Shown here piece by piece: positions 5,331 through 24,146 of a DNA stretch of 64,000 nucleotides (positions within the stretch are counted from its first letter, which is position 1; each line of letters starts with the position of its first letter). The translations under genes and the position numbers were made by a program. The DNA comes from Alphaproteobacteria bacterium (GTDB taxonomy: Bacteria > Pseudomonadota > Alphaproteobacteria > Rs-D84): positions 1,114 to 65,113 of the forward strand of contig JAFYUU010000019.1 of NCBI GenBank assembly GCA_017549445.1, in the 5' to 3' direction. Below the pieces are notes generated by a model. That model made no database searches. It had not been told where the DNA came from and worked only from the letters and a program-made list of their open reading frames with translations.

Positions 5331-6402
5331 ATGATTATGGTCAATGAAGTTTTAACACAAATCGCAGACGACATTTATGCCGTCAGGGGGTTTCTTTGAC
5401 CCCGAAAAACTGAAATCTCAGATTGCAGAACTGGAAGAACAGACAAACAATCCCAACCTGTGGGACAATCCTGACAATGCCAGGGGTGTTTTACAAAAAA
5501 AATCGGGATTGGAAAAGACACTGAACGAACTGTTGGAATTGGAATCCGATTTTTCTACACTGAAAGAACTGTATGAAATCGCACCAGACGACAAGGACGT
5601 GGTTGAAGGTATAGAAAAGCTGCAAGAACGTGCACATCAGGCCAAGTTTATTACACTGTTCCGTGAACCTGCGGACAACAGTGGGGCATTCCTGTTTATT
5701 CAGGCAGGGGCCGGTGGAACCGAGGCACAGGACTGGGTCCAGATGTTAAGCCGTATGTATGCACGTTGGGCCGAACGACATGGTTTTTCATACGAAGTTA
5801 TCGAAGAACACCCAGGCGACACGGCCGGCATAAAAAATATCACGTATAGAATTTCCGGTGAACGGGTCTATGGTTGGCTGAAAAACGAAATCGGTGTGCA
5901 TCGGTTGGTGCGTATTTCACCATTTAATGCCAATGGCAAACGACAGACCAGTTTTGCGTCTGTTGACGTGTGGCCAGACGTAGATGACACGATTGAAATC
6001 GAAATAAACGAAAAAGATTTAAGAATTGATACATATCGGTCTTCGGGTGCGGGTGGCCAGCACGTCAACAAGACCGACAGTGCGGTGCGTATTACCCATA
6101 TTCCAACCAACACGGTCGTGACATGCCAAAATGAACGCAGCCAAATCCAAAATCGTGAAATGGCGATGAAAATGTTGCGAAGCAAGTTGTATGAATTGGA
6201 AATGCAAAAACGTGCAGAAGAAGAAAATGCCGTTCTGGCCCAGCAAAAGAAAATTGAATGGGGCAGTCAGATTCGCAACTATGTCTTGTATCCATATCAA
6301 CTGGTCAAAGATGTGCGGACGGGGGTGGAAAATACGGACTCGGGTGCGGTGTTGGACGGCGATTTGGACGAATTTATGTTGGCGTTATTGCAACGGGGAT
6401 AA
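5331..6402 (+). CDS. prfB: peptide chain release factor 2, programmed +1 frameshift (join 5331..5396,5398..6402)
   Basis: Frame 0 reads MIMVNEVLTQIADDIYAVRGFL and ends at TGA 5397-5399. The +1 frame continues DPEKLKSQIAELEEQ... through SPF and the GGQ motif (RSSGAGGQHVNKTDSAVR). Confidence 0.9.
5385..5399 (+). promoter_or_regulatory. RF2 autoregulatory +1 frameshift site
   Basis: AGGGGG TTT CTT TGA C: an internal SD-like AGGGGG lies 3 nt before the slippery CTT-TGA-C, as in E. coli prfB. Confidence 0.85.
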
Positions 6403-6445
6403 AGTGTTGCATTTTTTTCAAGAACAGATATAATAGGCGACAAAT

Positions 6446-6484
6446 GCACCCATAGCACAACTGGATAATGCGTCACCCTCCGAA
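6446..6484 (+). pseudogene. 5' half of disrupted chromosomal tRNA-Arg(CCG), attL junction
   Basis: GCACCCATAGCACAACTGGATAATGCGTCACC-CTCCGAA covers the acceptor 5' strand, the D arm, the anticodon-stem 5' strand and the loop. Non-tRNA sequence follows. Confidence 0.8.
6478..6484 (+). repeat. 7-bp crossover core CTCCGAA (attL copy)
   Basis: The identical heptamer recurs at 16536..16542 (attR), and at 16350..16356 inside the island-borne tRNA. Confidence 0.7.
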
Positions 6485-6606
6485 TTTCAAAACTCGTTGT
6501 TTTCTGTGGCTTTCATAAGATTTACAAAACTTTATATTTTTTCCTAGCATCAACGATTTACAGTTGTAAAATGTTTTACGTAGTAGGCGGGAGATTTATT
6601 AAATAA

Positions 6607-6658
6607 GTTAGCCATAGGTTAGCCACCATACGTTTCGGTTAGCCAGACTGGTTAGCCA
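6607..6658 (+). repeat. four direct (G)GTTAGCCA repeats, putative integrase arm-type sites
   Basis: Copies lie at 6607-6614, 6618-6625, 6638-6645 and 6651-6658, just upstream of int. The same motif recurs twice at 16432-16450. Confidence 0.6.
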
Positions 6659-6678
6659 ACCGCATAAGGAGAATCCCG

Positions 6679-7887
6679 ATGCCTGCACAATCAAATGATC
6701 GCAGATTTAATTTCACAGAAGCAACCGTTGCCGCATTACCACCTGCCCCACAGGGCAAACGAATTATGTATTATGATACAGCGGTTAAAAGTTTGGCTTT
6801 GCGAGTCAGTTCCACAACAAAAGTCTATTACCTTATCAAAAAAGTGAATAACCAGACTGTTTTTTCAAAAATCGGCGATGCAAATAACACCACTTTGAAA
6901 AACGCACGCAAACGGATGAATGAATTAATCGAACAGACAAATCGTGGTGAAAACCCAAATGACGAAAAACGTAAAATTCGTGATTCCGTAACCGTGCAGG
7001 AGTTTTTTGATGAATACTATTACCCGGACCACTCTGAATTGCGCAAACAAATATCCGCCCAGAAAATGGACCAAGTATCTATGCGACTGTATATACCATC
7101 GGACATCAAAAGCAGAAAAATGCTAACGCTGGCCCGCGCCGACATGGAACGCATGCATAACGCGATTTGGAGACGCACAAACAGCGTTTATTCTGCCAAC
7201 CGTGGCTTAAAACTAATGCGCCAGATGTTTAATAAGGCCATAGATTGGGGATTCCCCTGCACCAATCCCGCCGCACGCATAAAACTGTTCCCAGAAGTCC
7301 AACGCGACCGTTTCTTGCAACCCGAAGAATTAAGCATATTTTTCCAAGAGGTTGCCAATATACCGAATGCCACATCACGTAATTTTATATTGTTAAGCCT
7401 GTTCATGGGCCAACGCCGTCGCAACATCCAAGCCCTGCAATGGTCGGATATAAACCTGGAACGCAAGGTTGCTTATATCAAAAAGACCAAGAACGGCGAA
7501 CCCCAGGTTGTCCCACTATCCACACAAGCAATAGACCTGTTGCACGAAATGGAAACCTTTAAAACCAGCAATTGGTTATTCCCCAGCACACAATCGCGCA
7601 GCGGACACCTGGAAAACCCACAGGTCGCATGGCGCGCCATGAAAGAGCGTGCAGGACTGAAAGACCTGAGATTGCATGATTTACGACGTACATTTGCCAG
7701 CTATCAGGCAATCACAGGTTCTTCCAACGAAATTATTGGCAAAGCCCTGGGCGACAAATCGCCAGCGGTCATACCTATTTATGCACGTCTGACCGAGGAT
7801 CCGGTACGACAAAGCATCCAACGCGCAGCCGACCAGATGTTTGCCGCCGCTAAAATCAACCACAAAACCGAAGAGGCCACACAATGA
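6679..7887 (+). CDS. tyrosine integrase (P4-like, DUF4102 arm-binding N-domain)
   Basis: 402 aa with an AAGGAG RBS. The N-terminus reads FTEATVAALPPAPQGKRIMYYDTAVKSLALRV. The catalytic region contains GQRRRNI...HDLRRTFAS...IYARL. Confidence 0.9.
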   Translation: MPAQSNDRRFNFTEATVAALPPAPQGKRIMYYDTAVKSLALRVSSTTKVYYLIKKVNNQTVFSKIGDANNTTLKNARKRMNELIEQTNRGENPNDEKRKIRDSVTVQEFFDEYYYPDHSELRKQISAQKMDQVSMRLYIPSDIKSRKMLTLARADMERMHNAIWRRTNSVYSANRGLKLMRQMFNKAIDWGFPCTNPAARIKLFPEVQRDRFLQPEELSIFFQEVANIPNATSRNFILLSLFMGQRRRNIQALQWSDINLERKVAYIKKTKNGEPQVVPLSTQAIDLLHEMETFKTSNWLFPSTQSRSGHLENPQVAWRAMKERAGLKDLRLHDLRRTFASYQAITGSSNEIIGKALGDKSPAVIPIYARLTEDPVRQSIQRAADQMFAAAKINHKTEEATQ

Positions 7888-8444
7888 AACAGAAACACTA
7901 CACCCTGGCAGAGGCCGCCCATTGGATTGCATTTAGGAAAACCGATCTTTCGCTGGACTATATATACGCACATGCACAGGAAGTAAGTGACGCAAAGGAT
8001 ATTTTGTTTGATGCACTACTGAAGCAACAGATACGGATCACATCTGACGCAGGCCCAATTATATTCAGAGAATCTTACATGCTGGATTTTGAATTTAATA
8101 CAATAATACCCCCTTTTAGTTGTCCGTATGAACTAAGTGCTCCGCGAAATAACATAAAAATAAGCGCAGCAGATATGCACAGGGAATTTCCATTGGTAGT
8201 AACGGGCTCTAAAATTGAAACTGGTTATTCTGCTCCATACCTAGAAGTGGCGATCGCAGCCATCAATCGTTTAGGGATAACAAATGACAACCAACCATTA
8301 AAAAAGAATATAAACGATACCATTAAGGCAGAATTGGCGAGTCGTAATTTGCCATGTAGCGACCGCAAAGTAGAAGCGCTCGCAACTATGATTCGTTTAC
8401 CAGAAACGGAAAAAGGTGGCAATAGACGACTTAAAAACAACTAA
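7884..8444 (+). CDS. hypothetical protein (island)
   Basis: 186 aa. An ATGA overlap with the int stop suggests translational coupling. No domain recognised. Confidence 0.5.
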   Translation: MKQKHYTLAEAAHWIAFRKTDLSLDYIYAHAQEVSDAKDILFDALLKQQIRITSDAGPIIFRESYMLDFEFNTIIPPFSCPYELSAPRNNIKISAADMHREFPLVVTGSKIETGYSAPYLEVAIAAINRLGITNDNQPLKKNINDTIKAELASRNLPCSDRKVEALATMIRLPETEKGGNRRLKNN

Positions 8445-8512
8445 ACATCGACACTCGCCAACATGCTGGTTTTATTACTACTATAGGTAACCCTGACACC
8501 CTTTTTACACAC

Positions 8513-8542
8513 AACGCCGACACCGTATCGGCGTTGTTTTTT
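8513..8542 (+). terminator. rho-independent terminator
   Basis: AACGCCGA-CACCGTA-TCGGCGTT followed by GTTTTTT. Confidence 0.7.
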
Positions 8543-8659
8543 ATTACACAAACCCACAAAATAACATCAATCAAGGAAGTGCACATCGTTGAGAAATCAA
8601 ATCAAGAAATTCGATGCATCAGATTTCGAAGTTAATGATAAAAAATATGGAGAATAAAA

Positions 8660-8866
8660 ATGATCAGTTTTAATTTTCTAACGACGGCCGAAGTGGCCGA
8701 TTTATTAAGAATCAGAAAAAACACCATTGAACGGTGGCGGGTCAGTCGAACATGTCCAATACCATGGACAAAGATTGGCGGACGCGTTCTGTATCAGAAA
8801 CAAGACATCCTGAACTATCTGGACTGCCAAAAACGAACATCTAATCATCGCATATATGGAGACTAA
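8660..8866 (+). CDS. AlpA/excisionase-family helix-turn-helix protein
   Basis: 68 aa. LTTAEVADLLRIRKNTIERWRVS...GGRVLYQKQDILNYL is typical of the MerR-like Xis/AlpA HTH. Confidence 0.7.
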   Translation: MISFNFLTTAEVADLLRIRKNTIERWRVSRTCPIPWTKIGGRVLYQKQDILNYLDCQKRTSNHRIYGD

Positions 8867-8868
8867 TT

Positions 8869-10098
8869 ATGAGCGAAGAAAACAAGAAAGAAACACAAAA
8901 TCAATCCACAGGCGCTATGCTAAATATCCCTGTGCCCGCCCCATGGGACGAACCAGTGGATGGTAATAAACTTTTGGAGGATCTGTTGCGTGCCTATAAG
9001 AGTTATGTTGTTTTGCCTACCTATGGGGGACCTACCCTGGCGTTGTGGACATTATACACATACGGATTTCAGCATTTTGAATTTTCCCCACGCCTGGCGA
9101 TCACATCACCGGAAAAGCGATGCGGAAAAAGCACTCTGCTAATCATGTTGGAAATATTGACCCATAAAGCGTTAACCGCTTCTAACATTTCAACAGCATC
9201 AATATATCGCGTAATAGAATTGGAACAACCAACACTTTTGCTGGATGAAGCGGATACATTTCTGCGGCGCGAACCGGAAATGGCGGGCATCTTAAATGCA
9301 GGGCATCGTGTAGGCGGTCAAACAATTCGCACAGAATACCGCGGCAGACAAGCTGTCCCCACATGCTTTAAATGCTTTTCGCCATGTGCGATTGCTGCGA
9401 TTAACAAGAAATCGCTGCCCGAACCGCTGCTAGACCGCTCTATCTGTATCCAGATGCGCCGAAAGACGGTAGATGAACATGTCGAAAGGTTGCGAACTCG
9501 AGTGGCCGAGCAACAATTCTACGACCTGCGCCGTAAATGTGTTCGCTTTATGAGTGATTTTGGCGAAGAAATCGCGCGCCTAACACCAGAGATTCCAGAC
9601 GAGCTGTCCAGCCGTGCAGCAGACAACTGGGAACCTTTGCTAGCAATTGCAGATTTCGTAGGTGGAATATGGCCTAAAATTGCAAGAAACGCTGCGATTG
9701 GACTTATTGATAAAAGCGACCCAGACGACGAAAATCTGGGGACGCAATTATTGCTGGACATCCGTCAAATATTTGCGAACTATCCGAACGAAAATATAAA
9801 CTCAGCATTGCTGTGCGAAAAGCTGGCAGAAATCCCAGAAAGCCCATGGGCGGAATACGGATATCGGCACGAGCGCATAAACCCGCGCCAGGTCGCAAAG
9901 AGGCTACGCGAATACAATATACAGTCTGTCAACGTACGATTTGGACATCAGGTTGTCAAGGGTTACCGGATAGTGGATTTTCAAGAAGCCTTTGCTCGAT
10001 ACCTACCCAAAATTGACCGCGACACCGCTACAATCCCAGAAAATGAATCGGATCACGTAGCGGCAATAGAGGCCGCATTCGCTACAATAAACATATAG
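8869..10098 (+). CDS. DUF3631-like P-loop ATPase (replication/mobilisation-associated)
   Basis: 409 aa with Walker A KRCGKST and Walker B LLLDEAD. Proteins of this type are common next to AlpA in P4-like islands. Confidence 0.6.
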   Translation: MSEENKKETQNQSTGAMLNIPVPAPWDEPVDGNKLLEDLLRAYKSYVVLPTYGGPTLALWTLYTYGFQHFEFSPRLAITSPEKRCGKSTLLIMLEILTHKALTASNISTASIYRVIELEQPTLLLDEADTFLRREPEMAGILNAGHRVGGQTIRTEYRGRQAVPTCFKCFSPCAIAAINKKSLPEPLLDRSICIQMRRKTVDEHVERLRTRVAEQQFYDLRRKCVRFMSDFGEEIARLTPEIPDELSSRAADNWEPLLAIADFVGGIWPKIARNAAIGLIDKSDPDDENLGTQLLLDIRQIFANYPNENINSALLCEKLAEIPESPWAEYGYRHERINPRQVAKRLREYNIQSVNVRFGHQVVKGYRIVDFQEAFARYLPKIDRDTATIPENESDHVAAIEAAFATINI

Positions 10099-10312
10099 TA
10101 AATCAGGCATGTAGCGTTGTTGCGTATAAGAAGGGGCAGACGATCCAGTTTGCCCCAACAAAACAAAGCACCAAAAATTCCCCGCATGTGTCTTTTTTCA
10201 CAATTTTTGCCAACTAATACAATTCCTTCAAAAACTCATCCCAGGACACGTCGTTATCACATGACTTTCTGCACACTTGTTCTTTATTCTGTTCTATTTC
10301 TTGAACTGTTTT

Positions 10313-12847
10313 TTATGGCTGTTCGACAAGCTCTTTATAATCACAGCTAGTATAGTTGCCGGGTTTGTAATTACTACACCCATAAAAATCTTTGCCGTAT
10401 TGACTTTTATGATATATCAAATATCCAGAACACTTCGGGCATTTACGTATTTTACGCCCTGCACCAAACTTTTTTATATATTCTGACGTTGAAATTTCGT
10501 TCCAAAATAAACTCGGATTTTTTGCTGGCACAACCAAATAGCATATTTTCTGTGCACGTGTTAATGCAACGTAGAACAGTCGTCGCTCTTCTGCGTATGG
10601 ATATCTATCCAGCTTTACCAATAATTCAGACAGCAACTTATCATCCATTATTTGATTTGGAAAACCTAACGGTCCTGATTCCACGTTTAATATTATAACT
10701 ATATCGGCCTGCAATCCCTTGGCTTTGTGTACAGTCGATACTTCAAATTGCAATTCCGGATACCCTTTATGGCGCAAAAACGCGTCTTTCCCATCGTCTC
10801 CCTGTAATTCCCATTCAAGTTCCATGCTTTCCTTTCTAAAGATTTCCAGATCGGATTTGTTGCGTATCAACAGCATAATCTTTGGATTTTTCTTGAAGGT
10901 TTTTGGATCGGATTTGATTTGCTCTACAATATCATTTACAATATCTGTTAATCCAGTGCTATGACACCCATCAGTTGGACATATAAAGGCTTTAATTTGT
11001 GTTTGATAGTCTGAATGCGAATTTAATTTTTTGCGTTTTTGGTATGGATTTTTCTGCACAAAATCACCAGCTAGGTCAACTAAGTTCTGCCCACTCCGGA
11101 ATGTATCTTCTATAAAATATTCTTTATGATCTGGGAAATATTCTTCAAAGTTTACAAAGAAACGCAAATCCCCACCATTAAATCTATAGATTGACTGCCA
11201 GTCGTCCCCAACACAAAAACAATATGTGTCTGTTTGTTTTTGAATTGCGCGGATTAAATCGCATCTGTCCTTGGCAACATCCTGAAATTCATCAATTAAA
11301 ATATATTTATAATTGCTTAAATGCTCACCAGAAATGACTGCACCGGTTGCACTACGTATCATATCTGAAAAATCAATCAGATTATATTGAGATAAATATT
11401 CGTTATATTGTTTATAAAAAACTTTAAACAGATTAAAAAATACATCTATGCGTTTGCGGTCAAATTCGGACGATTGCTGTAATGTCCGGCCTTGCAATTC
11501 GTTTAAATCGCGTTCTGTCGCGTATCCGTTGGATTTAAACAGACTTAAGAAACGCCCCATTAAACTTGCTAAACTGGACATACCACGCTGTTGTATTAGT
11601 TGCTTAACAACGTCTCTCTTTTGTTCCTGTGTCAGGGGACGCAATTCAACCCCAAAGGCAATCAATTTTTGTTTTAGATTTGTGGCAAGGGCGTGTTGAT
11701 AAAACTCATACAAATGTAAATCTATGACCTTTGCGCCGTCCTTTTTATAATTCGCCTGTTTTATTTCTTTATCAGCAATATATTTGTATGCTTTGTTTCT
11801 GTCCTTTAACCACGGCACAGAATTGTTTTCCATTACCCCCCAATGCTCAATCCAAATATCATATTCTGGCAAATAAAAATCGGGGTTACAGACTGTATTA
11901 CCTGCCTTATCCTGATATGGGTGTTCATATATATACTCGATTCCATTTTCAAACAGCCAATTTGCGATCAAAACCTCGGGTTCACTTTTGAATTTCTCTG
12001 CCTTATTCATACCACGTTTGCGTTTGATTAACATGCTTTTGATACTCTCAAAAGACAAACTATCCAAATACGCAGCATAATCACCCTGATTTCCAAACTC
12101 TTCAAACGACAAGAAACTATCTTTATAGTAGGCGAACCAGCGATACAAATCATCCTGCACCCCTGTATCGTTTGTATTTAGAAAATCCATTATCAGGGCT
12201 TTTGTTTTTTGATCGTCTAACACCCCCACCCGTGAACCATTTATTTTTTCTAAAATTCCCTTTCCCAACTTATGAAATGTTTGGGCAATCTCTGGCATAT
12301 TGTGTGTTTTTAACTTTTGGTTTAAATCGTCGGCTGTATCGTTCGTAAAAGACAGTAATAAAATCTCATTTGCTGATGCCTTGCCCGATGCAAGCAAATA
12401 TGCAACCTTACCCAATATTGTGGTACTTTTTCCGCATCCCGCCCCAGCAACAACCAATGCGTTTTTTTCTTCGTTATATACGGCGTTTTGTTGCTGCTCA
12501 GTTAGTTTAGCTAACGCAGACAGGTGACCATATTTTGATTTTTGGCTATCTACAAACATCTCATTACGCTTTTCTACCAGAATAAAACTATGTCTTTTGG
12601 CTTCTTCTATTTTACTTTTATAAAATGTATACCATGATGATGTTGCAGCGGTATTATCACGAACATATTTTAATAAATTATCCCACTCGTTATGGAACTG
12701 TTTAATTTGTTTTGCTGGTATATATTCCAGGTCCTGTATGCTTTGTAGTATTATTTCTTTGGATTTTTCTAGCAGGTTGCCGAATGAAATAGATGGCACG
12801 GATTCAAACTCAAAACTTTTATCTGTATCGGACCAATAACCAGCCAT
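10313..12847 (-). CDS. SF1 UvrD/Rep/helicase IV-like helicase with internal PD-(D/E)xK-like insert and C-terminal zinc ribbon
   Basis: 844 aa. Walker A AGAGCGKST (aa 134-142). Motif II ILIDEFQD. Also VGDDWQSIYRF, TVHKAKGLQAD and RRLFYVALTRA. The insert EPEVLIANWLFENGIEY...NPDFYLPEYDIWIEHWG spans aa 289-336. The C-terminus reads CPKCSGYL...YGCSNY...SCDY. Confidence 0.8.
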   Translation of the reverse strand: MAGYWSDTDKSFEFESVPSISFGNLLEKSKEIILQSIQDLEYIPAKQIKQFHNEWDNLLKYVRDNTAATSSWYTFYKSKIEEAKRHSFILVEKRNEMFVDSQKSKYGHLSALAKLTEQQQNAVYNEEKNALVVAGAGCGKSTTILGKVAYLLASGKASANEILLLSFTNDTADDLNQKLKTHNMPEIAQTFHKLGKGILEKINGSRVGVLDDQKTKALIMDFLNTNDTGVQDDLYRWFAYYKDSFLSFEEFGNQGDYAAYLDSLSFESIKSMLIKRKRGMNKAEKFKSEPEVLIANWLFENGIEYIYEHPYQDKAGNTVCNPDFYLPEYDIWIEHWGVMENNSVPWLKDRNKAYKYIADKEIKQANYKKDGAKVIDLHLYEFYQHALATNLKQKLIAFGVELRPLTQEQKRDVVKQLIQQRGMSSLASLMGRFLSLFKSNGYATERDLNELQGRTLQQSSEFDRKRIDVFFNLFKVFYKQYNEYLSQYNLIDFSDMIRSATGAVISGEHLSNYKYILIDEFQDVAKDRCDLIRAIQKQTDTYCFCVGDDWQSIYRFNGGDLRFFVNFEEYFPDHKEYFIEDTFRSGQNLVDLAGDFVQKNPYQKRKKLNSHSDYQTQIKAFICPTDGCHSTGLTDIVNDIVEQIKSDPKTFKKNPKIMLLIRNKSDLEIFRKESMELEWELQGDDGKDAFLRHKGYPELQFEVSTVHKAKGLQADIVIILNVESGPLGFPNQIMDDKLLSELLVKLDRYPYAEERRLFYVALTRAQKICYLVVPAKNPSLFWNEISTSEYIKKFGAGRKIRKCPKCSGYLIYHKSQYGKDFYGCSNYKPGNYTSCDYKELVEQP

Positions 12848-12853
12848 AAATAA

Positions 12854-12981
12854 TCTCCCTTAGCAAAACAATAACCGCCATGGGAATTATGGCGGTCGGG
12901 AGAGTTCGTAAATCATATTTCGCAAATGATTCCGGCTGTCTTTGGAATAATCCTGTTATATAACAGACAGCTCCCCGACCG
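12854..12981 (-). promoter_or_regulatory. structured 5' leader of the helicase gene with SD / anti-SD / anti-anti-SD complementarities
   Basis: The SD GGGAGA is the reverse complement of 12854-12859. The anti-SD UCUCCC is the reverse complement of 12898-12903. An 8-bp hairpin lies at 12874-12896. The distal segment 12971-12981 is complementary to 12893-12902. Confidence 0.3.
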
Positions 12982-13212
12982 ATATAGTCAGGGTATAACG
13001 GCACAATTTGCACCATTAACGGAATAACGATGCAAAATCGCACCGTGCGAAATAAGGCTTACGACAGCCCCGAATCCAACTCCCATCGGATTCAATGTGA
13101 ATTATAGCAGATATCGATATAGAATGTCAACAAAATCTATAACATCTTGTTGTTTTTATTCCTTTTATTTGCTATATCATTTTTTAAATAGCAATTAATT
13201 ATAGGACCGACC

Positions 13213-14328
13213 ATGACATTCGTAAAAGACATCGAATTAAATTTGCTGGAAAACAATGCTGATTTACTGAACGGTAAACCATATGCAGAAGCATTAAAAA
13301 ATACAATTCTTCAGAACACACAAAGTAATGAATCTATGGTTGTTGGTTTGCTGGGCGAATGGGGAAGCGGGAAATCTACAATTATAAAAACCGCTGAAGA
13401 AATGATTAAAAAATCTAACAAAAATATTAAGTTTATTAAATACGATGCGTGGAAGTATAAAAAAGACGGTTTTCGTAGAACTTTTTTACTACAAATTCAA
13501 CAATCTCTAGGTCTAAACTCAAATAATTTAATTGATAAGCTGTATTCTAATGAATCACGAGACACTTCCATCAAACACAAAATCAGTTATGCTCGCGTTG
13601 GTTGGTTGGTTTTATTTCTAAGCGCATTATCATTCGTTATTTATTACCTTGCAGGAATAAATATTTTTTCTGCACTTGTCGCTTCATTTATTACGACTAC
13701 ACCTATAATCCCATTAGTAAACGCAAGCTTTAACTGTCTGGACGCATTCAAAACAAGCAAACAAACGCCATTATTGTTTTCTGCGGAGCAATTTGAAGAA
13801 TTTTTCGATGAAATGATAACAAAAGAAACAACTAAGAACCCAAAAATCGTTATTACAATTGATAACATTGATCGATGCGATGCAGAAACCGCTTATTCGC
13901 TACTAAGCGACATTAAAACATTTTTAATTAACAACCCCAAAGTTGTTTTTGTTATTCCTGTGGATGATAACGCCCTTTACCAACACCTGAATAAAGTTTT
14001 TAATTATCAACGTAAACACGCTGGGGAATTTTTGAGAAAAATATTTAATGTTGAAATTAAAATTAAACACTTCGAGGAAATAGAATTGTTTGATTTTGCT
14101 AGCAATTTAAACAAAAAATATAAATTAGGCCTATCTCCTGATGCAATCAGCATAATTTCTAGCGAGTATGCCTCGAACCCTCGTCGCATAATACAATTTT
14201 GCAACAATCTAGAATGTGAAATTTCCGTATTGCTATCAAACGGACTTTTGCCAGCAGAGATCGACAGTCTAAAAAAACATGATATGCAAATTATTGATTA
14301 TAAGGGAAGAATGGCCAGATTACTATAA
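13213..14328 (+). CDS. KAP-family P-loop NTPase, N-terminal part (reading frame broken at an A7 tract)
   Basis: Walker A GEWGSGKST. Two TM helices (GWLVLFLSALSFVIYYLAG / IFSALVASFITTTPIIPLV) are inserted before the Walker B IVITIDNIDRCD, which is the KAP hallmark. Confidence 0.8.
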   Translation: MTFVKDIELNLLENNADLLNGKPYAEALKNTILQNTQSNESMVVGLLGEWGSGKSTIIKTAEEMIKKSNKNIKFIKYDAWKYKKDGFRRTFLLQIQQSLGLNSNNLIDKLYSNESRDTSIKHKISYARVGWLVLFLSALSFVIYYLAGINIFSALVASFITTTPIIPLVNASFNCLDAFKTSKQTPLLFSAEQFEEFFDEMITKETTKNPKIVITIDNIDRCDAETAYSLLSDIKTFLINNPKVVFVIPVDDNALYQHLNKVFNYQRKHAGEFLRKIFNVEIKIKHFEEIELFDFASNLNKKYKLGLSPDAISIISSEYASNPRRIIQFCNNLECEISVLLSNGLLPAEIDSLKKHDMQIIDYKGRMARLL

Positions 14329-16153
14329 CTGTATTTCAAAAGATTATAGATTACTAAATACATATGAACCGAAAAAAATTGAAGAAACATATCCAAACGT
14401 AGAGAATAAAGCAGAACGACAAGGCTTAGACAATTTTTTGCAACGCACTAGTGTATTCGCGTATATAGACGATGAGCGACAACTGGAAAAAATCGTCTCA
14501 AACAATTCGGTCTTTAATTCTATTCCTCTCGAGATTAGGCACGCCGTCCTACATTACGATGAATCTCAAATAAAAAATTACATATCTTTAGATGAAAACA
14601 ACTCAACAATTTTATTGAACTTTATTATTGAACGCCTAAGAGTGGAAGCTCTGAGAAAAACGTGGAATACAGGTTTCCTAACACTATTTAAAACTATTCT
14701 GTACATAAATAACATATCACATATATCAACAACGTCCAACTCTGGGATACAGTTGGAACTCAGGGGAAAAATCCATAATATAATTGACGGATTATTTAAA
14801 CAGCCACAACATATCCTGGATAATTTTATTAAATATTTAAACGATCTATCAGATCAAAAAAAGGACTATTTGATTCGCGATATGATAAACAACTATTTCA
14901 CGCCAGAAATTCTCCACACAACACCTCCCAGTAAAATTGCTATGGATGCGTATAAGACAACCATAACAGGCATAAAAAACACAAGCTTTTTCTCATCATA
15001 TAAGAAATTGTTCAACTCTTGGTATACCAATTCAAAACTATTATTAAAGGATCTAAATATAGAAAATCTAGATGACTTTATTTCTCAAGAATCTCTTGAA
15101 AAGCTTATTGAAGAAATTTCTTTTAGCAATCTAGAAAGACTTCACGATTTTATATATGCAGTTCAAAACATGTCGCATATTCCCGAACAAACTTATGAAG
15201 TTTTTTTCAAAAAACTCTATTCAATAACGCCACAGTACAATGTTCCAAATCAACAAGCGGTTATAGAAAGTTTTAAAATAGCTGTAACTATTTTAAAAAC
15301 AATAAAAAGAGACGATTTGATAATTACTTCATTAGACTCGTATATTACAAATACTACAAAGGACGTCCGAGCATACTCCTACTCTAGCGTACCCCTATTA
15401 TGCATATCTAATAATACGTCTAAAGAAGAAGACAAACGTACCGTATTAGAGTTCCTATCCATAGCATATAAACACACATCAAAGATCGATCTTATCGTTA
15501 AACAACTAAAGGCATTTGTGGCAAAATATACAGACGATAAAGATCTCGTCCTTAATGCTTTGATGCATGCAAATATAAATAATGATTTATCTCCGCTAAT
15601 AGACATTATATTTGGTGGTGAAGCTTATTCAGATGCTTACATATACTGGATTAAGAAACTAACCTTATTAACAGAAGGAAACAAACCGTGTGTGGATGAC
15701 GAAGTTTTGACAAAAGAAATCAAACATATTTTATCATCAATTTTATACATACAAGATACAGACACAGTAGAATCTTTGAATAACCTGTTGGAATTTTTAG
15801 TAGAAAAACGAGGACTCACTTCATCTGCAGCAATTGTTAGCAAGGTTGAAAATGCAGGAAGCAATTTGATTATAAAGTTATCAAACGCTTTAAAAATACT
15901 GGTTTTAGATAAAATTTGCGAGAATATGACCTCCTATGAGCACAATAATGACATTTTAAAATTAATTGCTGTACACGGAAGTAAAACGCAAATTGCATCA
16001 CTTATGCAAGTCATTTTAAAAAAGATTGTTGATGAACGAGATGAAGCAATAGAGATATATAATCAAATTCCTGAAAAATTTATAACAGCACAACACAAAA
16101 AGAAAATTAGGCCATACTTGGAAGAAGATAATGACTCACAAGTAGAAAAGTAA
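14279..16153 (+). CDS. C-terminal part of the KAP-family NTPase (+1 frame relative to 13213..14328)
   Basis: 624 aa. It begins ...KLLIIREEWPDYYN, which continues the KAP core. It overlaps the upstream ORF by 50 nt. Removing one A from 14271-14277 fuses the two into about 980 aa. Confidence 0.65.
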   Translation: MICKLLIIREEWPDYYNCISKDYRLLNTYEPKKIEETYPNVENKAERQGLDNFLQRTSVFAYIDDERQLEKIVSNNSVFNSIPLEIRHAVLHYDESQIKNYISLDENNSTILLNFIIERLRVEALRKTWNTGFLTLFKTILYINNISHISTTSNSGIQLELRGKIHNIIDGLFKQPQHILDNFIKYLNDLSDQKKDYLIRDMINNYFTPEILHTTPPSKIAMDAYKTTITGIKNTSFFSSYKKLFNSWYTNSKLLLKDLNIENLDDFISQESLEKLIEEISFSNLERLHDFIYAVQNMSHIPEQTYEVFFKKLYSITPQYNVPNQQAVIESFKIAVTILKTIKRDDLIITSLDSYITNTTKDVRAYSYSSVPLLCISNNTSKEEDKRTVLEFLSIAYKHTSKIDLIVKQLKAFVAKYTDDKDLVLNALMHANINNDLSPLIDIIFGGEAYSDAYIYWIKKLTLLTEGNKPCVDDEVLTKEIKHILSSILYIQDTDTVESLNNLLEFLVEKRGLTSSAAIVSKVENAGSNLIIKLSNALKILVLDKICENMTSYEHNNDILKLIAVHGSKTQIASLMQVILKKIVDERDEAIEIYNQIPEKFITAQHKKKIRPYLEEDNDSQVEK

Positions 16154-16187
16154 CTTGGGGGACCTAGGGTAGCGGCTTACAAAACTG

Positions 16188-16238
16188 TAAATTTCCGTCG
16201 TTCGTAACCCGCTAACGCGGTGTCACGACGGAAATTTA
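16188..16238. repeat. 14-bp perfect inverted repeat (hairpin) after the KAP gene
   Basis: TAAATTTCCGTCGT (16188-16201) and ACGACGGAAATTTA (16225-16238), with a 23-nt loop. No T-run follows. Confidence 0.6.
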
Positions 16239-16317
16239 TGCTCTTAGCATCCAATCAAACAAACATGAAATTGGTGTTTGATTTTTGCTTAGCTTTATGT
16301 ATAATTACTAAGAAATT

Positions 16318-16394
16318 GCACCCATGGCCTAACTGGATATGGCGCGTCCCTCCGAAGGACGAGGTTACAGGTTCGAATCCTGTTGGGTGCGCCA
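16318..16394 (+). tRNA. tRNA-Arg(CCG), intact island-borne copy
   Basis: GCACCCA TG GCCT..TGGC G CGTCC CTCCGAA GGACG AGGTT ACAGG TTCGAAT CCTGT TGGGTGC G CCA. Total 77 nt. The acceptor stem matches the split tRNA, and the D, anticodon and T stems carry compensatory changes. Confidence 0.9.
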
Positions 16395-16431
16395 AAAACT
16401 TGCTAAAGTTTTATCTGACTTTATCTAAAAA

Positions 16432-16450
16432 GTTAGCCATAGGTTAGCCA
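16432..16450 (+). repeat. two direct GTTAGCCA repeats (second arm of the att region)
   Basis: GTTAGCCATAGGTTAGCCA is identical to 6607-6625. Confidence 0.55.
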
Positions 16451-16535
16451 GATAGTTTTAGCGACAAACAAGCACCCGCCATAACTTGCGGAAAACTGGG
16501 AATTTTATAAAGTGTAAGTGTTATAAGTCCTGAAA

Positions 16536-16580
16536 CTCCGAAGGTGAAGATTGTGGGTTCGAATCCCGCTGGGTGCGCCA
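16536..16580 (+). pseudogene. 3' half of disrupted chromosomal tRNA-Arg(CCG), attR junction
   Basis: CTCCGAA-GGTGA AGATT GTGGG TTCGAAT CCCGC TGGGTGC G CCA. GGTGA pairs with TCACC at 6473-6477. Joined to 6446..6484 it gives a 77-nt cloverleaf. Confidence 0.8.
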
Positions 16581-17095: not shown

Positions 17096-20000
17096 TTAAT
17101 TGAATCCTAATCTTCTTGACACTATGGACGAGACCTGACCACCGACATGTCGGGCTTCAACCTCGATAACATTGTCAAAATACAATTTATAATTTTGCTG
17201 GGGTTGGACATAATACCTCTGTGCCCAATCTATAAATGGTCTTGGTATAGAAGATTTTGACAAACTTTGGAAAGCATGTGTGTTTTCATGAACAATTGTG
17301 TCCAACATCTTGGCAAAATTTGGTGCATCCACAGAGTAGGCAAATTGTCGTGGCCTCATAGACGTTGGATCCCAATGAACACCGTTTGCACCATTCAAGA
17401 CGTTTACATCGTCAATGATTATAACAGTGTTCCCTACGTGGTCACGACGCATTGTGGTCACCAATTCATGAACCTGGTCAACTAAGTATTTTCTTTGATT
17501 ACGTTCTAATTTTTTCCATTGTTTTGCCATGTCGACCAAATCGGTTCTGGTTGCAAATCGAGATACCAATTCATCCGCCAGGTCATTCGCCATGGCTGTG
17601 GCACGTGCCTCGTCAAAGGCATTTACCTGTTTCAACGCACGAACTGCATCTGCGTGGGTTGCAGAATTTTCATATACATATTTCAACTTGGATTCCAAAA
17701 CATAATCTGGCATATCATCATATATTCTGGAAAAAACACTGTCCACACCATCACGCAACCAGTTGGTTGGGGCGTTATCCCATGGACCAAAAATATTTTT
17801 ATCAGATATTGCCAAGAAATACTTGCCAGAGTTATCCATATTTGACGATACATAATACCCCTGTTTCTGCAATGCAGCAATAATGGCAGACACATCATCT
17901 TTGTTGGTGACAACAATTCTGTAATAATCATGCCCCAGTGAATTTTCAGATGCACGACGCAAAAACGCCTGTTTGTTAAATGGCTGCAAGATGTTGGCAA
18001 TTTTGCCCGATGTATCCATATGTCTGAAACGCATAACACGGGCACCGTTTTGTGTGGTCTCGAACAACTCGACATTATGTGCTGCTATTTCAGAATTTAA
18101 CAGATCCCAATCTTGTTTGCTTAAACGGTTTGCCGGCAAACCCACACTTTCCTGACCGCTTAAAAACGCCTTTAAGTATTCGTCAAAATTCTGGCTGGCA
18201 CGTTCACTTAAAGGAATCAACCAATTACCGGGGCTGTTTGCCCAGGATATAAATATATCTTTGTCCGATGCACCCAGGAAACGGCGACCGCCCTGCTCGG
18301 TTCCGGCAGATACGTAAAAGCCCCGTCGTTGCAGTTCATTGATTATATCTGCAACATTATCACCGTCATCAATATAAATACGATAATAATTGGCACCGTT
18401 TAATGACGAACTGCTTCGCAGGAATGCCGATTTGTTAAATCTGCTGACAACGGATACAATGTCATCAACATGAGTGCCCGTAGCACCAACGTGGCCCAAC
18501 CAATGGGTGAATTTGCCAAGTAATCTGGGGGCACTCTTGAACAAATCGTCAATTGCCTGTTCGGGTGCGACAAATATCGATGCCATCATGACGGCCGGGG
18601 TCGCAACCTTTAAGGCAATATCACGCTCGTTCAGGTGCGACGAACCAATCGCAGCCGAAAATTCTGCATCTGATAGCAAAGATGCCATTCTGTCCATTTC
18701 AGATGCAACAACCGACATTTCATCAGGTTCAAGTTTATCTACAATCTCGTTCAAGCGGGCAAAATGCTGGTTCACAATGCGATACGCACACAGATTCTCA
18801 TTGCAGTGCTGGGCCTCGCCCATAAAGGACAAGGCACGATGATGTGGATTTACCTCGTGCAGGCGTTCCAGACCAATAAACACACCGTCAACCGCAACAG
18901 AACCCACAACCGCAACCAAATAATAGGCACCCGTGACCCCTGCCCCGGCAGCGGACGCAATCCCCAGGGTGCCAATCGTCACAACTATACCCGTTGCAAT
19001 GGAAATGCCGTTTCGTATTGTCTGGGCCTGTTTTGCATCATTTAGAACACAGGCGTTTGCACCCTGGTCCCAATGGGTGCCACCAGGTATGGAATCGTTT
19101 GCCAATGCACATTGTTCACGATTTAATGAGCGACAATGTTTTCCATCGTATTTACCACCATGAATCATACAAGAAATACCTGCCATACTGCCGTCTTGTT
19201 CATAGGTTGCAGATTCAGACAAATCGTCAAAGACAAAGTCAACAGGGGATCCGTTCACATAACAGGTTAAAACATCATCTGTTCCAGCAAACGGTCCAAT
19301 CTCGGACAACATCAATGTCGGTGCATAATTACACGAAAACTCAATCAAGGGTTCGTTCTGGGCCGACATATGTGCAATAACATACTGCTTTATTTTTTCT
19401 ATCAACGCAGGGGTCATTTCAACCTGGATTGTATTGGCAAATACCATGTTATCAATACCATATGCGGTTCGCAGATTTGACATGGATGCACCTACAACAC
19501 TGCTAAATACACATGCCAATGCCCCCTTGCGATTGGTAATATTGACTTTTAGACCAAATGTTTGGGCATGCTTGTCAATCAAATCACATACAGTGGCATC
19601 TGTGGTGTCGCATGCACTGGGCCAACTTTCACCAGGGGCAACCATCGTGTCTGCCGACATCCCACTGGGCAAATACTCTAAATCATACAGGGTGCACAGT
19701 GCTTGTTCTGTCCCCTCGGCCAACCAAGCGTCTTTGCTTTCTTCTACATCATCAAATTCGAACTCATAGGCCTCGCCACCGGCACTGCAACGCAGGTAAT
19801 ACTGGCTGGAACGTGTCTGAAAATCGTTTTCACAGGTCAGCATCAAATCATTTTTCTGGCCCCAAATGTCAGCCAGACCAATCGCAGTCAATGGTTGGGT
19901 TTGGACATCTTGGAATACACGAACACATACACCCCATCCGTCACCACACGATGACGAAAATGCAAGGTGTTTGCCGTCTTTGCCCAGGCACAGTTCATGC

Positions 20001-20488
20001 CCCGTGCCATCGTCTTGCCAGGTCCCACCCAATTTTTTACAGGTGGCACGGTTTATTGGTTTGGCTTCCACTGTTTTTCCACGGTTTAGACGGCGGGCAT
20101 CTTTGATTATGCCCTGAATAAATTTAATGCATGTGTCGTGACCAATACTGGCAATTTCATAACCTTCTTGGGCACAGTGACTGGAATGTGGAAATTCCTG
20201 ACAATGGGTAATGTGACCTGCGACACAAACATTCAGCAGGTCCTCAAACGTTATTTTGCCCGTTTTCGAGTTCCAGTGTTTTTGGAACACGGTGGCGGCA
20301 TCCGCCTGGTATTCTGTTGGGATAAATTCGCGCATATTGTCCGCAAATGCAACATAAGGCACACCAACCAACGCAGATAAATTATTTGTGATAATCTGAC
20401 CCTGATCATATGCACCACTGGTAGATGGACCGGCAAAAGCAGAGGCACCAAACATCAAAAAAGGCAAGAAAATCAACATCTTTCTCAT
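17096..20488 (-). CDS. large secreted/membrane protein: Cys-rich N-terminal half, Gly/Ala-rich TM segment, duplicated ~76-aa module, C-terminal HExxH
   Basis: Start taken at MRKMLIFLPFLMFGASAFA (ATG 20488). TM region ISIATGIVVTIGTLGIASAAGAGVTGAYYLVAVVGSVAVDGVFIGL (18869..19006). Repeats at 18218..18445 and 17756..17986. HENTH at 17276..17290. Confidence 0.65.
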   Translation of the reverse strand: MRKMLIFLPFLMFGASAFAGPSTSGAYDQGQIITNNLSALVGVPYVAFADNMREFIPTEYQADAATVFQKHWNSKTGKITFEDLLNVCVAGHITHCQEFPHSSHCAQEGYEIASIGHDTCIKFIQGIIKDARRLNRGKTVEAKPINRATCKKLGGTWQDDGTGHELCLGKDGKHLAFSSSCGDGWGVCVRVFQDVQTQPLTAIGLADIWGQKNDLMLTCENDFQTRSSQYYLRCSAGGEAYEFEFDDVEESKDAWLAEGTEQALCTLYDLEYLPSGMSADTMVAPGESWPSACDTTDATVCDLIDKHAQTFGLKVNITNRKGALACVFSSVVGASMSNLRTAYGIDNMVFANTIQVEMTPALIEKIKQYVIAHMSAQNEPLIEFSCNYAPTLMLSEIGPFAGTDDVLTCYVNGSPVDFVFDDLSESATYEQDGSMAGISCMIHGGKYDGKHCRSLNREQCALANDSIPGGTHWDQGANACVLNDAKQAQTIRNGISIATGIVVTIGTLGIASAAGAGVTGAYYLVAVVGSVAVDGVFIGLERLHEVNPHHRALSFMGEAQHCNENLCAYRIVNQHFARLNEIVDKLEPDEMSVVASEMDRMASLLSDAEFSAAIGSSHLNERDIALKVATPAVMMASIFVAPEQAIDDLFKSAPRLLGKFTHWLGHVGATGTHVDDIVSVVSRFNKSAFLRSSSSLNGANYYRIYIDDGDNVADIINELQRRGFYVSAGTEQGGRRFLGASDKDIFISWANSPGNWLIPLSERASQNFDEYLKAFLSGQESVGLPANRLSKQDWDLLNSEIAAHNVELFETTQNGARVMRFRHMDTSGKIANILQPFNKQAFLRRASENSLGHDYYRIVVTNKDDVSAIIAALQKQGYYVSSNMDNSGKYFLAISDKNIFGPWDNAPTNWLRDGVDSVFSRIYDDMPDYVLESKLKYVYENSATHADAVRALKQVNAFDEARATAMANDLADELVSRFATRTDLVDMAKQWKKLERNQRKYLVDQVHELVTTMRRDHVGNTVIIIDDVNVLNGANGVHWDPTSMRPRQFAYSVDAPNFAKMLDTIVHENTHAFQSLSKSSIPRPFIDWAQRYYVQPQQNYKLYFDNVIEVEARHVGGQVSSIVSRRLGFN

Positions 20489-21441
20489 CTTAATACCCCC
20501 GTGCATTTTTCGGCAACAGATGCCACACGTTTAATCGCAGAAATCTGGGACGCATTAAATACAGTAGCGGTCGTTGCTGCAACCGTCGTCCCAGCAGACA
20601 AAATATTTGCTGTTGTATTCAGATTCTGTTCACGTTTGCGACCCGCATCCGTATTGTCAGCACGTGTTGCGTTCGTATTCGCAACCGCAGAAACGATTGT
20701 TCCAATTGCACCTGTGCCGGCACCAACACCAGACGATACAAGTGCACCAGTCGCACGTGTATCTATCTTGGACAAATCCACATATTCATAATCATCACAC
20801 GCATCTACAATGGTTTGGGCCTCGGATATATCAACACCAGACATACGGGCAGATAACATTGCATTTTTCAACGCATTTACCGATTTAATACAATCTGCAA
20901 CCTGGGTATGCAAGTCCGCATCAACACGATTCGTGCCGGCAATCACAGCACCTGCTACGTTGGTTGCGGTCGCACCCGCCAACAATCCTGTTCGCCAATT
21001 TCCCAGTTTCTTGGATTGATTTTCCAGTTCTTGAATCTGGGCCAAGGTTTTGCTTTTAATTTGGACAACATTATTTTCCAACCCCAACAAAATATCATCC
21101 ATTACCTGGTATTCCCGTTCCAGTTCGGACATCTGAACGTCTGTCAGGGTCTTTTGACGGGCATCTTCGGCCATCTGCAATTCTTTCAATATTTTTTCCA
21201 GTTGTGCCTGCTTGGCATCTTTGTTCGCCTTGGCCAGGCCAGTTGCAGTGGCACCAGCACCGGCAACAGTTCCAACCGCAGTCACCGCTGTATTTATCCC
21301 CGCCAAACGTTTCATATCTGACAACTGGTCATCAATACCAATGCATGCCGTATAAGTTGCACGCAGGGCGTCGTCCAAATCAGCCGAATTTGCATGTGAA
21401 AAAGACGGCAAAAAAGCCAATAAAACAAGCAAATAACGCAT
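20485..21441 (-). CDS. secreted coiled-coil / glycine-zipper-like protein
   Basis: 318 aa. Signal peptide MRYLLVLLAFLPSFSHA. Four Gly/Ala/Thr-rich hydrophobic segments and a central coiled coil. An ATGA overlap links it to the downstream 1130-aa gene. Confidence 0.6.
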   Translation of the reverse strand: MRYLLVLLAFLPSFSHANSADLDDALRATYTACIGIDDQLSDMKRLAGINTAVTAVGTVAGAGATATGLAKANKDAKQAQLEKILKELQMAEDARQKTLTDVQMSELEREYQVMDDILLGLENNVVQIKSKTLAQIQELENQSKKLGNWRTGLLAGATATNVAGAVIAGTNRVDADLHTQVADCIKSVNALKNAMLSARMSGVDISEAQTIVDACDDYEYVDLSKIDTRATGALVSSGVGAGTGAIGTIVSAVANTNATRADNTDAGRKREQNLNTTANILSAGTTVAATTATVFNASQISAIKRVASVAEKCTGVLR

Positions 21442-23769: not shown

Positions 23770-23798
23770 TTGCAATTTCCAGTGCAAAAGATTATAAT
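23770..23798 (+). promoter_or_regulatory. sigma70 promoter of ssrA (TTGCAA-N17-TATAAT)
   Basis: -35 at 23770-23775 and -10 at 23793-23798, with a 17-nt spacer. Confidence 0.6.
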
Positions 23799-23804
23799 CC
23801 AATG

Positions 23805-24146
23805 GTCGCAGTTGCGATGATGATTCTGAAGCCGTTGTGCAATAGTCATTTTGGACTGGGGGGCGGTACCCCACAGCTCCACCATCTGATGCGATGAAGA
23901 GTCGTATCTGATTATGGGGCTGACATAGTTTCGACAGGTGATGAAAGACAAATTGGTTGAATCCGACATGGCGTCGTTAAAAGCCGACTAAAAACTGAAT
24001 GGCGATAGAATCGCTGCGAACGACAATGTTCGCCTTGCAATGGCTGCCTAAGATGGCGTTGAGTGTGGTTGGCGATTGTTGACCAAACTCGTTTGAGCAA
24101 TTGCGGGGTCGGTCGGGGACCTGGCACCAGAAATCCCGACATTTTG
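23805..24146 (+). ncRNA. ssrA: circularly permuted two-piece tmRNA gene (acceptor piece, ~31-nt intervening segment, coding piece)
   Basis: The acceptor piece ends ...TGGGGGGCGGTACCCCACAGCTCCACCA at 23884. The coding piece starts GGGGCTGACATAGTTTCGACAGG at 23916. GGGGCTG pairs with CAGCTCC and includes a G3-U wobble. The tag ORF GCG AAC GAC AAT GTT CGC CTT GCA ATG GCT GCC TAA (24016..24051) encodes ANDNVRLAMAA. A 9-bp helix forms between 23807-23815 and 24097-24105. A terminator hairpin lies at 24112-24140. The outer ends are approximate. Confidence 0.8.

Follow-up and report, generated by a model that had tools for sequence, protein, structure and literature searches.

Organization of the tRNA-Arg(CCG) locus

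The DNA analysed here is a 64,000-nucleotide stretch (hereafter the window) of Alphaproteobacteria bacterium, assembly GCA_017549445.1, contig JAFYUU010000019.1, positions 1,114 to 65,113, and its subject is a 10,051-bp integrated island that lies between the two halves of a host transfer RNA (tRNA) gene, tRNA-Arg(CCG), and carries a complete tRNA-Arg(CCG) gene of its own. The features on which this arrangement rests are the following (window coordinates; int, integrase gene; L094, a contig of the same species with the uninterrupted tRNA gene):

6407-6434, plus strand: probable promoter of the host tRNA-Arg(CCG) gene (TTGCAT, 16 nt, TATAAT), its -10 box ending 11 nt before the gene
6446-6484, plus strand: 5' half of the host tRNA-Arg(CCG) gene (attL), with the acceptor 5' strand, D arm, anticodon-stem 5' strand and loop CTCCGAA
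6478-6484, plus strand: left copy of the 7-bp common core, or overlap, CTCCGAA (the anticodon loop), the sole identity between attL and attR
6485-16535, no strand assigned: integrated island, 10,051 bp, absent from L094, with 38.4% G+C against 43-45% in the flanks
6607-6658, plus strand: P' arm, directly upstream of int, in which the arm-type repeat GTTAGCCA occurs four times, 123-174 bp from the core, conserved in relatives
6679-7887, plus strand: tyrosine integrase of 402 amino acids with Arm-DNA-bind_3 (PF13356) and Phage_integrase (PF00589) domains, matching phrog_1 (integrase)
16278-16305, plus strand: promoter-like site (TTGATT, 16 nt, TATAAT), with 10/12 matches and its end 12 nt upstream of the island tRNA, the motif kept in relatives
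16318-16394, plus strand: complete island tRNA-Arg(CCG), the replacement gene, called by ARAGORN and matching the Rfam tRNA model at 64 bits (gathering score 29)
16432-16450, plus strand: P arm, in which the arm-type repeat GTTAGCCA occurs twice, 86-104 bp from the core, conserved in relatives
16536-16580, plus strand: 3' half of the host tRNA-Arg(CCG) gene (attR), with loop CTCCGAA, anticodon-stem 3' strand, variable loop, T arm, acceptor 3' strand and CCA

A preliminary description of this DNA had proposed that the segments at 6446-6484 and 16536-16580 are halves of one tRNA and that neither junction regenerates a functional gene, and both proposals held. The 5' half reads GCACCCATAGCACAACTGGATAATGCGTCACC-CTCCGAA and runs on into AT-rich sequence of non-tRNA character, the 3' half reads CTCCGAA-GGTGAAGATTGTGGGTTCGAATCCCGCTGGGTGCGCCA, its first 7 bp being the right core copy, and when joined they give a 77-mer that ARAGORN calls as tRNA-Arg(CCG). 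ARAGORN found no tRNA at attL, at attR or in the reconstructed attP, and neither host half matches the Rfam tRNA model at E<=1; over the whole window, the program reports a single tRNA-Arg(CCG), the one at 16318-16394. The host promoter was read by eye and falls below the criteria of the promoter scan, and it is kept in L094.

Empty site and support for the junctions

An empty site was sought in Joint Genome Institute (JGI) metagenomes with a DNA pattern running across the joined anticodon stem-loop, which returned five contigs. L094 carries the uninterrupted tRNA-Arg(CCG) at positions 285-361, base-identical to the joined halves (the 5' half corresponds to positions 1-39 and the 3' half to positions 33-77 of the intact gene), between flanks that match those of the window at 97.5% (left, 244 bp) and 99.6% (right, 1,964 bp). 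The other four contigs (L090-L093) belong to related species; their tRNA-Arg(CCG) is likewise uninterrupted, and prfB and/or a lipoprotein homologue adjoins it where the contigs reach. Relatives with an uninterrupted gene, which the preliminary description had named as a check, thus exist, and because of the L094 empty site the 10,051 bp between the two CTCCGAA copies are an insertion into the anticodon loop, with those 7 bp as the only sequence common to attP and attB.

When the integrase and the lipoprotein encoded downstream were looked up as exact proteins, identical junctions (attL and/or attR) were recovered in at least seven independent metagenome assemblies, which rules out the assembly chimera that had been raised as another explanation. 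The lipoprotein look-up yielded no empty site, all seven contigs with the exact allele being occupied. Group I introns sit in the anticodon loops of some alphaproteobacterial tRNAs, and a giant intron, or a split tRNA gene repaired at the RNA level, would be a further way to read two separated halves. We give this possibility, together with the chimera, practically no credence, as both junctions are common to the independent assemblies, the insert has the usual make-up of an integrase island, with attL and attR at its ends, and an Rfam scan of the insert at E<=1 detected no intron and no other RNA family besides weak or sub-threshold matches and the island tRNA. The remaining matches of that scan were a reverse-strand match of the ycf2 model on the island tRNA and a weak match of the tmRNA model on the T arm of the 3' half. 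In addition, 10521-10616 (minus strand) matches n00280 below threshold (37.6 bits against a gathering score of 65.2, E 0.0028); n00280 is a Clostridioides difficile small RNA located within a helicase gene, and its match, inside the UvrD-type helicase open reading frame (ORF) of the island, probably reflects conserved coding sequence.

Integrase and attachment site

The island sides of the two junctions reconstruct an attP that reads ...GTCCTGAAA-CTCCGAA-TTTCAAAAC..., flanked by the two arms. The repeat GTTAGCCA occurs six times in the 64-kb window, always within the arms, as the preliminary description had it (four near int, two at the far end), and 0/100 shuffled sequences reach six occurrences. 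The arm-binding domain that it had ascribed to the integrase was also found, as PF13356, which we take to be the former DUF4102. Moreover, R246, K271, H333, R336 and Y368 of the integrase are invariant among 24 homologues. The 5-bp inverted repeat reported around the core was only partly upheld: it is perfect in this island, but not in its close relatives, whose right arms read TTTTA, TTAAA and TTTCG.

The island-borne tRNA-Arg(CCG)

The island tRNA proved to be an intact tRNA-Arg(CCG), as had been claimed. It matches the joined host tRNA at 60/77 positions, with identical acceptor stems and compensatory changes in the D, anticodon and T stems. In a set of 11 tRNA-Arg(CCG) sequences from hosts and islands, the 20 cloverleaf pairs give 220 cells, every one of them a standard pair (220/220), and 12 of the 20 pairs show compensatory changes, whereas the same structure slid by 1-3 columns pairs at just 35-49%; therefore, the island tRNAs evolve as tRNAs. 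The split host halves are undecayed, being identical to the gene of the empty site. Furthermore, the codon CGG occurs at 5.9 per 1000 codons in the host ORFs of the window, so that a decoder for it is needed.

In all ten complete pairs of host and island tRNAs (see below), one or more base pairs of the anticodon stem are different. In locus L107, island tRNA-Arg(TCT) and split host tRNA are distinguished by a single compensatory pair of that stem (ACAGA/TCTGT against ATAGA/TCTAT; 7706-7757, 12659-12735, 12887-12922). Such a difference may keep the island tRNA from serving as attB for its own integrase.

Related loci: split and conventional targets

Loci with related integrases were examined by joining each 7-mer upstream of int to identical 7-mers downstream and asking ARAGORN for a tRNA that spans the joint; each intact tRNA was also aligned against the rest of its own locus. 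All resolvable loci of the integrase clade (14/14; ten complete, four partial) combine a split host tRNA with an island tRNA of the same anticodon:

Arg-CCG, complete: window, L010, L011, L095/96, L097/98, L105; partial: L099
Arg-TCT, complete: L014, L100/101, L107; partial: L013, L104, L106
Leu-TAA, complete: L027; partial: none

These islands measure 6-10 kb. Between the end of the island tRNA and the core lie 130-144 bp in the complete examples, with an arm-repeat pair in this interval, and int starts 170-221 bp past the core (430 bp in L014); the aligned reconstructed attP sites keep the order promoter, tRNA, arm pair, core, arm sites, and the common core measures 7-13 bp across the clade. 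In a neighbour-joining tree, the split-type loci and three unresolved ones form a clade apart from the conventional loci in 98/100 bootstraps. A scan of genome collections with an alignment of integrase homologues assigned the organism group to Candidatus Enterousia, of the alphaproteobacterial order Rs-D84; the clade is found in this genus and in other alphaproteobacterial metagenome-assembled genomes (MAGs). The three unresolved loci (L012, L015 and L016) lie on short contigs and were left unclassified; in L012 (4459-4879) coding sequence reaches the start of int, and no tRNA piece is found within 420 bp of int. Single 7-9-bp matches of the joining test in L033, L034, L064 and L074 were not counted, although L034, with no intact tRNA in its locus, and L074 could be further split-type cases.

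The conventional relatives, with integrases at most 45% identical, have an intact tRNA-Met, tRNA-Asn or tRNA-Thr at the far end and a displaced 45-57-nt 3' tRNA fragment upstream of int (about 190 bp in most loci, about 0.9-1.6 kb in some). These islands restore their target and carry no extra tRNA. This contrast bears on the possibility that the island tRNA is not mainly a replacement, and that another host tRNA reads CGG, the broken target being tolerated while the island tRNA adds to codon supply or counters an anticodon nuclease. The tRNA set is known for the 64-kb window rather than for the whole genome, counter-defence roles for phage tRNAs are raised in the discussion of Guerrero-Bustamante and Hatfull (PMC10865867), and the island carries defence-like cargo; all three would suit this view. 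Nonetheless, the island anticodon equals that of the disrupted gene in 14/14 resolvable loci and for three anticodons, as expected for complementation and not for generic cargo, and with genomes below about 1 Mb in Enterousia (0.75-1.0 Mb for its MAGs; PMC12306168) we hold such a dispensable role to be quite unlikely.

Comparison between host species further demonstrates, at the level of sequence, horizontal spread. In L010, from another Enterousia species, the flanks are 69-81% identical to those of the window, whereas the int/attP module is 96% and the backbone 88.6% identical; the cargo is different, the island tRNA is identical to that of the window and the host tRNA-Arg(CCG) sequence differs. 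The pair L011/L105 repeats this between-species pattern for a second island lineage. The host anticodon stems of the Arg-CCG targets vary (TCACC, TCGCC, TCGGC, CCGCC) and the attP flanks are A/T-rich, leaving the 7-nt loop alone common to attB and attP. Orientation relative to int varies too, since the 5' half adjoins int in islands of the window type and the 3' half does so in L027 and L107. A rule by which the island tRNA always points in the direction of the host gene was considered and rejected: it held in the window type and in L027 and is broken by L107, whose island tRNA lies on the opposite strand.

On these data, we regard as improbable that the island is an immobile remnant, which entered by the same route and is now fixed with int and attP dead, the host having swapped its tRNA-Arg(CCG) for a foreign gene. 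The occupation of every contig with the exact downstream lipoprotein allele, the absence of a circular junction in IMG/VR and a possibly frameshifted KAP NTPase in the cargo are in its favour. However, int is full length with all catalytic residues conserved, the split halves remain identical to the empty-site gene, an empty site exists within the same species, and the 96%-identical int/attP module despite 69-81% identical flanks implies recent transfer.

Even less credible, in our judgment scarcely worth entertaining, is a conventional, target-restoring island in which 16318-16394 would be the regenerated target and the halves leftovers of older or tandem events. Conventional integration by remoter members of the integrase family and the occurrence of tandem islands (L104) speak for it, but the halves join exactly into the empty-site gene with the same flanks, arm-type repeats between the island tRNA and the 3' half place that tRNA inside the element, and the island tRNA moves with the island into hosts of different tRNA sequence. 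Leftover fragments are thus ruled out by the L094 empty site and the position of the arm repeats. As for L104 itself (6880-7130, 7904-9121), another and different integrase island, on the opposite strand, comes right after the split Arg-TCT island, which makes a tandem array at one tRNA.

Proposed mechanism of integration and tRNA replacement

The element is very probably a small integrative island of Candidatus Enterousia, site-specific and not a phage, that uses the strategy known from phages as tRNA-dependent lysogeny. No phage structural or lysis genes were found in the island; the only PHROGs matches are to integrase, excisionase-type helix-turn-helix and helicase families and one family with no assigned function. 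IMG/VR essentially lacks the integrase clade, the only relatives there being two distant matches at 32% and 24% identity. The anatomy of the locus, the empty site, the tRNA-less junctions, the sound island tRNA and the recurrence of the design across the clade can be read directly from the aligned sequences, and we propose the following mechanism for them.

In the circular form, the island would present a cassette in the order promoter, tRNA-Arg(CCG), 141 bp with two arm sites, core CTCCGAA, 194 bp with four arm sites, and int, with a predicted circle junction of ...AAGTCCTGAAACTCCGAATTTCAAAACTCG.... The integrase would bind the arms through its N-terminal domain and exchange strands inside the 7-bp overlap, in the anticodon loop of the chromosomal tRNA-Arg(CCG). 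Integration would cut the host gene into two dead halves, because attP shares only 7 bp with the tRNA, and CGG decoding would be taken over by the island tRNA-Arg(CCG), transcribed from its own promoter. Excision, probably aided by the HTH_17 protein of the island, would rebuild the host gene exactly and restore an attB reading ...GCGTCACCCTCCGAAGGTGAAGA...; the part of HTH_17 in excision and the exact cleavage positions are what we infer from the sequence. The arrangement would enforce that an integrated island keeps its tRNA and that an island lacking it fails to establish, the latter having been shown by experiment in phage Fionnbharth.

The preliminary description had proposed that the target is destroyed and complemented in trans, an addiction-like arrangement if the host has no other CCG isoacceptor. 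The first proposal is sustained by the lack of a tRNA at either junction, the complete cognate island tRNA and the recurrence of the pattern throughout the clade; its implied departure from established systems did not stand, as the strategy was already described (PMC10865867). Concerning addiction, the word is overstated, because a crossover within the 7-bp loop lets precise excision rebuild the host gene; harm should follow only if an integrated island lost its tRNA or was deleted imprecisely. In a comparison with post-segregational killing, excision would by sequence logic regenerate the host gene, and the gene in L094 is intact.

Several points weigh against the proposed mechanism. The search for the circular attP junction, as suggested in the preliminary description, gave no match in IMG/VR, the sole collection searched for it, and the occupation of all seven contigs with the exact lipoprotein allele indicates that excision may be rare. 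Likewise, we infer from sequence that the island tRNA is expressed and charged, and presume, with 64 kb of the genome at hand, that the host tRNA-Arg(CCG) is single-copy and needed, for which CGG usage and the small Enterousia genomes are indirect support. Lastly, the loop of the island tRNA has the same 7 nt as the core, in direct orientation and 186 bp away, and the integrase would somehow have to avoid it.

A wider reading, which we put forward tentatively and with somewhat less than even confidence in the whole, is that breaking the tRNA and bringing a replacement has become the obligatory form of integration for a single integrase lineage of non-phage islands, whose hosts are gut Alphaproteobacteria with reduced genomes. 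Under this tentative reading, promoter, tRNA, attP and int would form a single portable cassette of about 1.7 kb. With no need to rebuild the target, the lineage could switch among at least three tRNA species and between both orientations. Its integrase would need only the 7-nt loop, perhaps sensing stem-loop shape over stem sequence, and the same island could therefore enter species with differing tRNA stems. The anticodon-stem difference, the sole difference in L107, may then stop attack on the island's own tRNA.

Regarding transcription of int, the host tRNA promoter (6407-6434) and the 5' half are intact and point at int 195 bp downstream, and no terminator-like site was seen on the same strand between the 5' half and int. 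In the circular form, the promoter of the island tRNA would take the position of the host promoter upstream of int. From this layout, a tRNA promoter may read into int in both the integrated and the circular state.

Comparison with known systems

The closest known system is tRNA-dependent lysogeny of actinobacteriophages (Fionnbharth/K4, Cluster L, Cain/K6, Gaia/X and Gordonia CQ2/DL), in which a short common core lies in a host tRNA, the gene is not rebuilt, lysogeny depends on a cognate phage tRNA and several tRNAs are targeted (Guerrero-Bustamante and Hatfull, mBio 2024; PMC10865867). Their cores measure 8-17 bp, close integrase relatives are conventional with cores of 43-52 bp, and in experiments the Fionnbharth element cannot establish without its tRNA (PMC10865867). 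The features that define this form of integration, i.e., a tyrosine integrase, an attB overlapping a tRNA, a core too short to rebuild it (8-17 bp there, 7-13 here) and an element tRNA with the same anticodon, all occur in the island. Further likenesses are the lambda-like integrase with an arm-binding domain, the arm sites flanking the attP core, the promoter of the element tRNA, and an integrase family with several tRNA targets and conventional relatives. Unlike the phages, however, the element is a 6-10 kb island without structural genes in a gut alphaproteobacterial host of reduced genome, and its orientation relative to int varies within the clade. Without exception, the complete examples place the island tRNA 130-144 bp from the core, in one tRNA-attP-int cassette, whereas the tRNA of Fionnbharth is located elsewhere, overlapping gene 37. 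The need of the tRNA for viability was demonstrated in actinobacteriophages and is presumed here.

Substitution of a tRNA has also been noted for prophage Lj965 of Lactobacillus johnsonii, as cited in PMC10865867, and for phage-related sequences in two Sinorhizobium papers. The likeness consists in an inactivated tRNA gene and a tRNA of the same isoacceptor supplied by the element, in each case sequence-based, and Sinorhizobium is also alphaproteobacterial. Unlike the present island, those elements are prophages or phage-related, and the passages on them mention neither a conserved cassette of tRNA and attP nor a pattern across a clade nor a switch of target.

Conventional tRNA-restoring islands with a crossover in the anticodon loop are covered by the sublocation classes of Williams (2002) and by the Islander database (PMC4383910). 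Our island shares with them the integrase architecture, a crossover in the anticodon loop, arm-type repeats and a distance of about 190 bp between int and the junction. It departs from them in that its attP holds no more of the tRNA than the 7-nt loop and the whole gene is carried separately, where a conventional attP includes the 3' 45-57 nt of the tRNA and integration yields an intact gene plus a displaced fragment. A restored target is seen in the relatives at most 45% identical and not in this island. A literature search for islands whose target tRNA is "not restored" returned nothing relevant.

The mechanism is, then, already known; what is new is the non-phage island, the host group, the compact tRNA-attP-int cassette and the clade-wide switching of target and orientation. 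In this context, tRNA-dependent integration extends beyond actinobacteriophages to an entire clade of small islands that are not phages and whose hosts are uncultured gut Alphaproteobacteria with reduced genomes. Island finders that look for a restored tRNA and a displaced fragment would miss such elements or misplace their boundaries, and the "tRNA-Arg(CCG)" annotated as the host's in such genomes is a foreign gene. Moreover, studies of how integrases change target could draw on the clade as a natural series that runs from conventional to split and spans three targets and both orientations, and the tRNA-attP-int cassette is a possible integration tool for organisms with minimal tRNA sets.

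Island cargo and neighbouring genes

The island has the gene order int, 186-amino-acid ORF, HTH_17, DUF3631, GajB-like UvrD helicase, KAP NTPase, 624-amino-acid ORF, tRNA; the genes between int and the tRNA are:

7884-8444, plus strand: ORF of 186 amino acids overlapping the int stop codon, an ORF call of unassigned function
8660-8866, plus strand: HTH_17 (AlpA/excisionase-type) small DNA-binding protein (PF12728; phrog_66, "excisionase and transcriptional regulator")
8869-10098, plus strand: DUF3631 protein, directly downstream of the HTH_17 gene
10313-12847, minus strand: cargo, helicase of the UvrD type that resembles GajB (GajB model match) and has a Zn ribbon at its C terminus
13213-14328, plus strand: cargo, KAP-family P-loop NTPase, QatA/PifA/PDC-S20-like (domain and defence-model matches)
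14279-16153, plus strand: cargo, ORF of 624 amino acids overlapping the KAP NTPase ORF by 50 nt

At the position of the 186-amino-acid ORF, a gene of 126-206 amino acids is called in most relatives examined, matched by position alone, and is absent in L104. The HTH_17 gene is present in all related islands, and its product is the probable recombination directionality factor. In relatives, the slot after HTH_17 holds a Toprim_3+AAA_25 primase-like gene, an AAA_25-only gene or, faintly, DUF3987, and in L104 and L105 unannotated ORFs. Among the cargo, the GajB-like helicase would call for a GajA partner, as the Gabija defence system pairs the GajB helicase with the ATPase-nuclease GajA, and no GajA match was found among the island proteins. 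The KAP NTPase and 624-amino-acid ORFs may be one frameshifted gene; the KAP NTPase of L104 has 777 amino acids, and the L010 island is without this cargo.

Upstream of the island, the prfB ORF (5377-6402, plus strand) starts at an internal-looking ATG (MPSGGFFDPEKL...); prfB encodes release factor 2, for which a programmed +1 frameshift is expected, and the N-terminal part presumably lies in another frame upstream. Just downstream, an ORF of 1,136 amino acids (17096-20506, minus strand), with no Pfam match on record in homologous contigs, adjoins the lipoprotein gene in all assemblies of the species. Finally, a permuted two-piece tmRNA (ARAGORN "tmRNA*") with the tag peptide AANDNVRLAMAA is found in the window at 23791-24142 (plus strand), in L010 at 20317-20672 and in L090 at 5968-6323, and fits an alphaproteobacterial origin.

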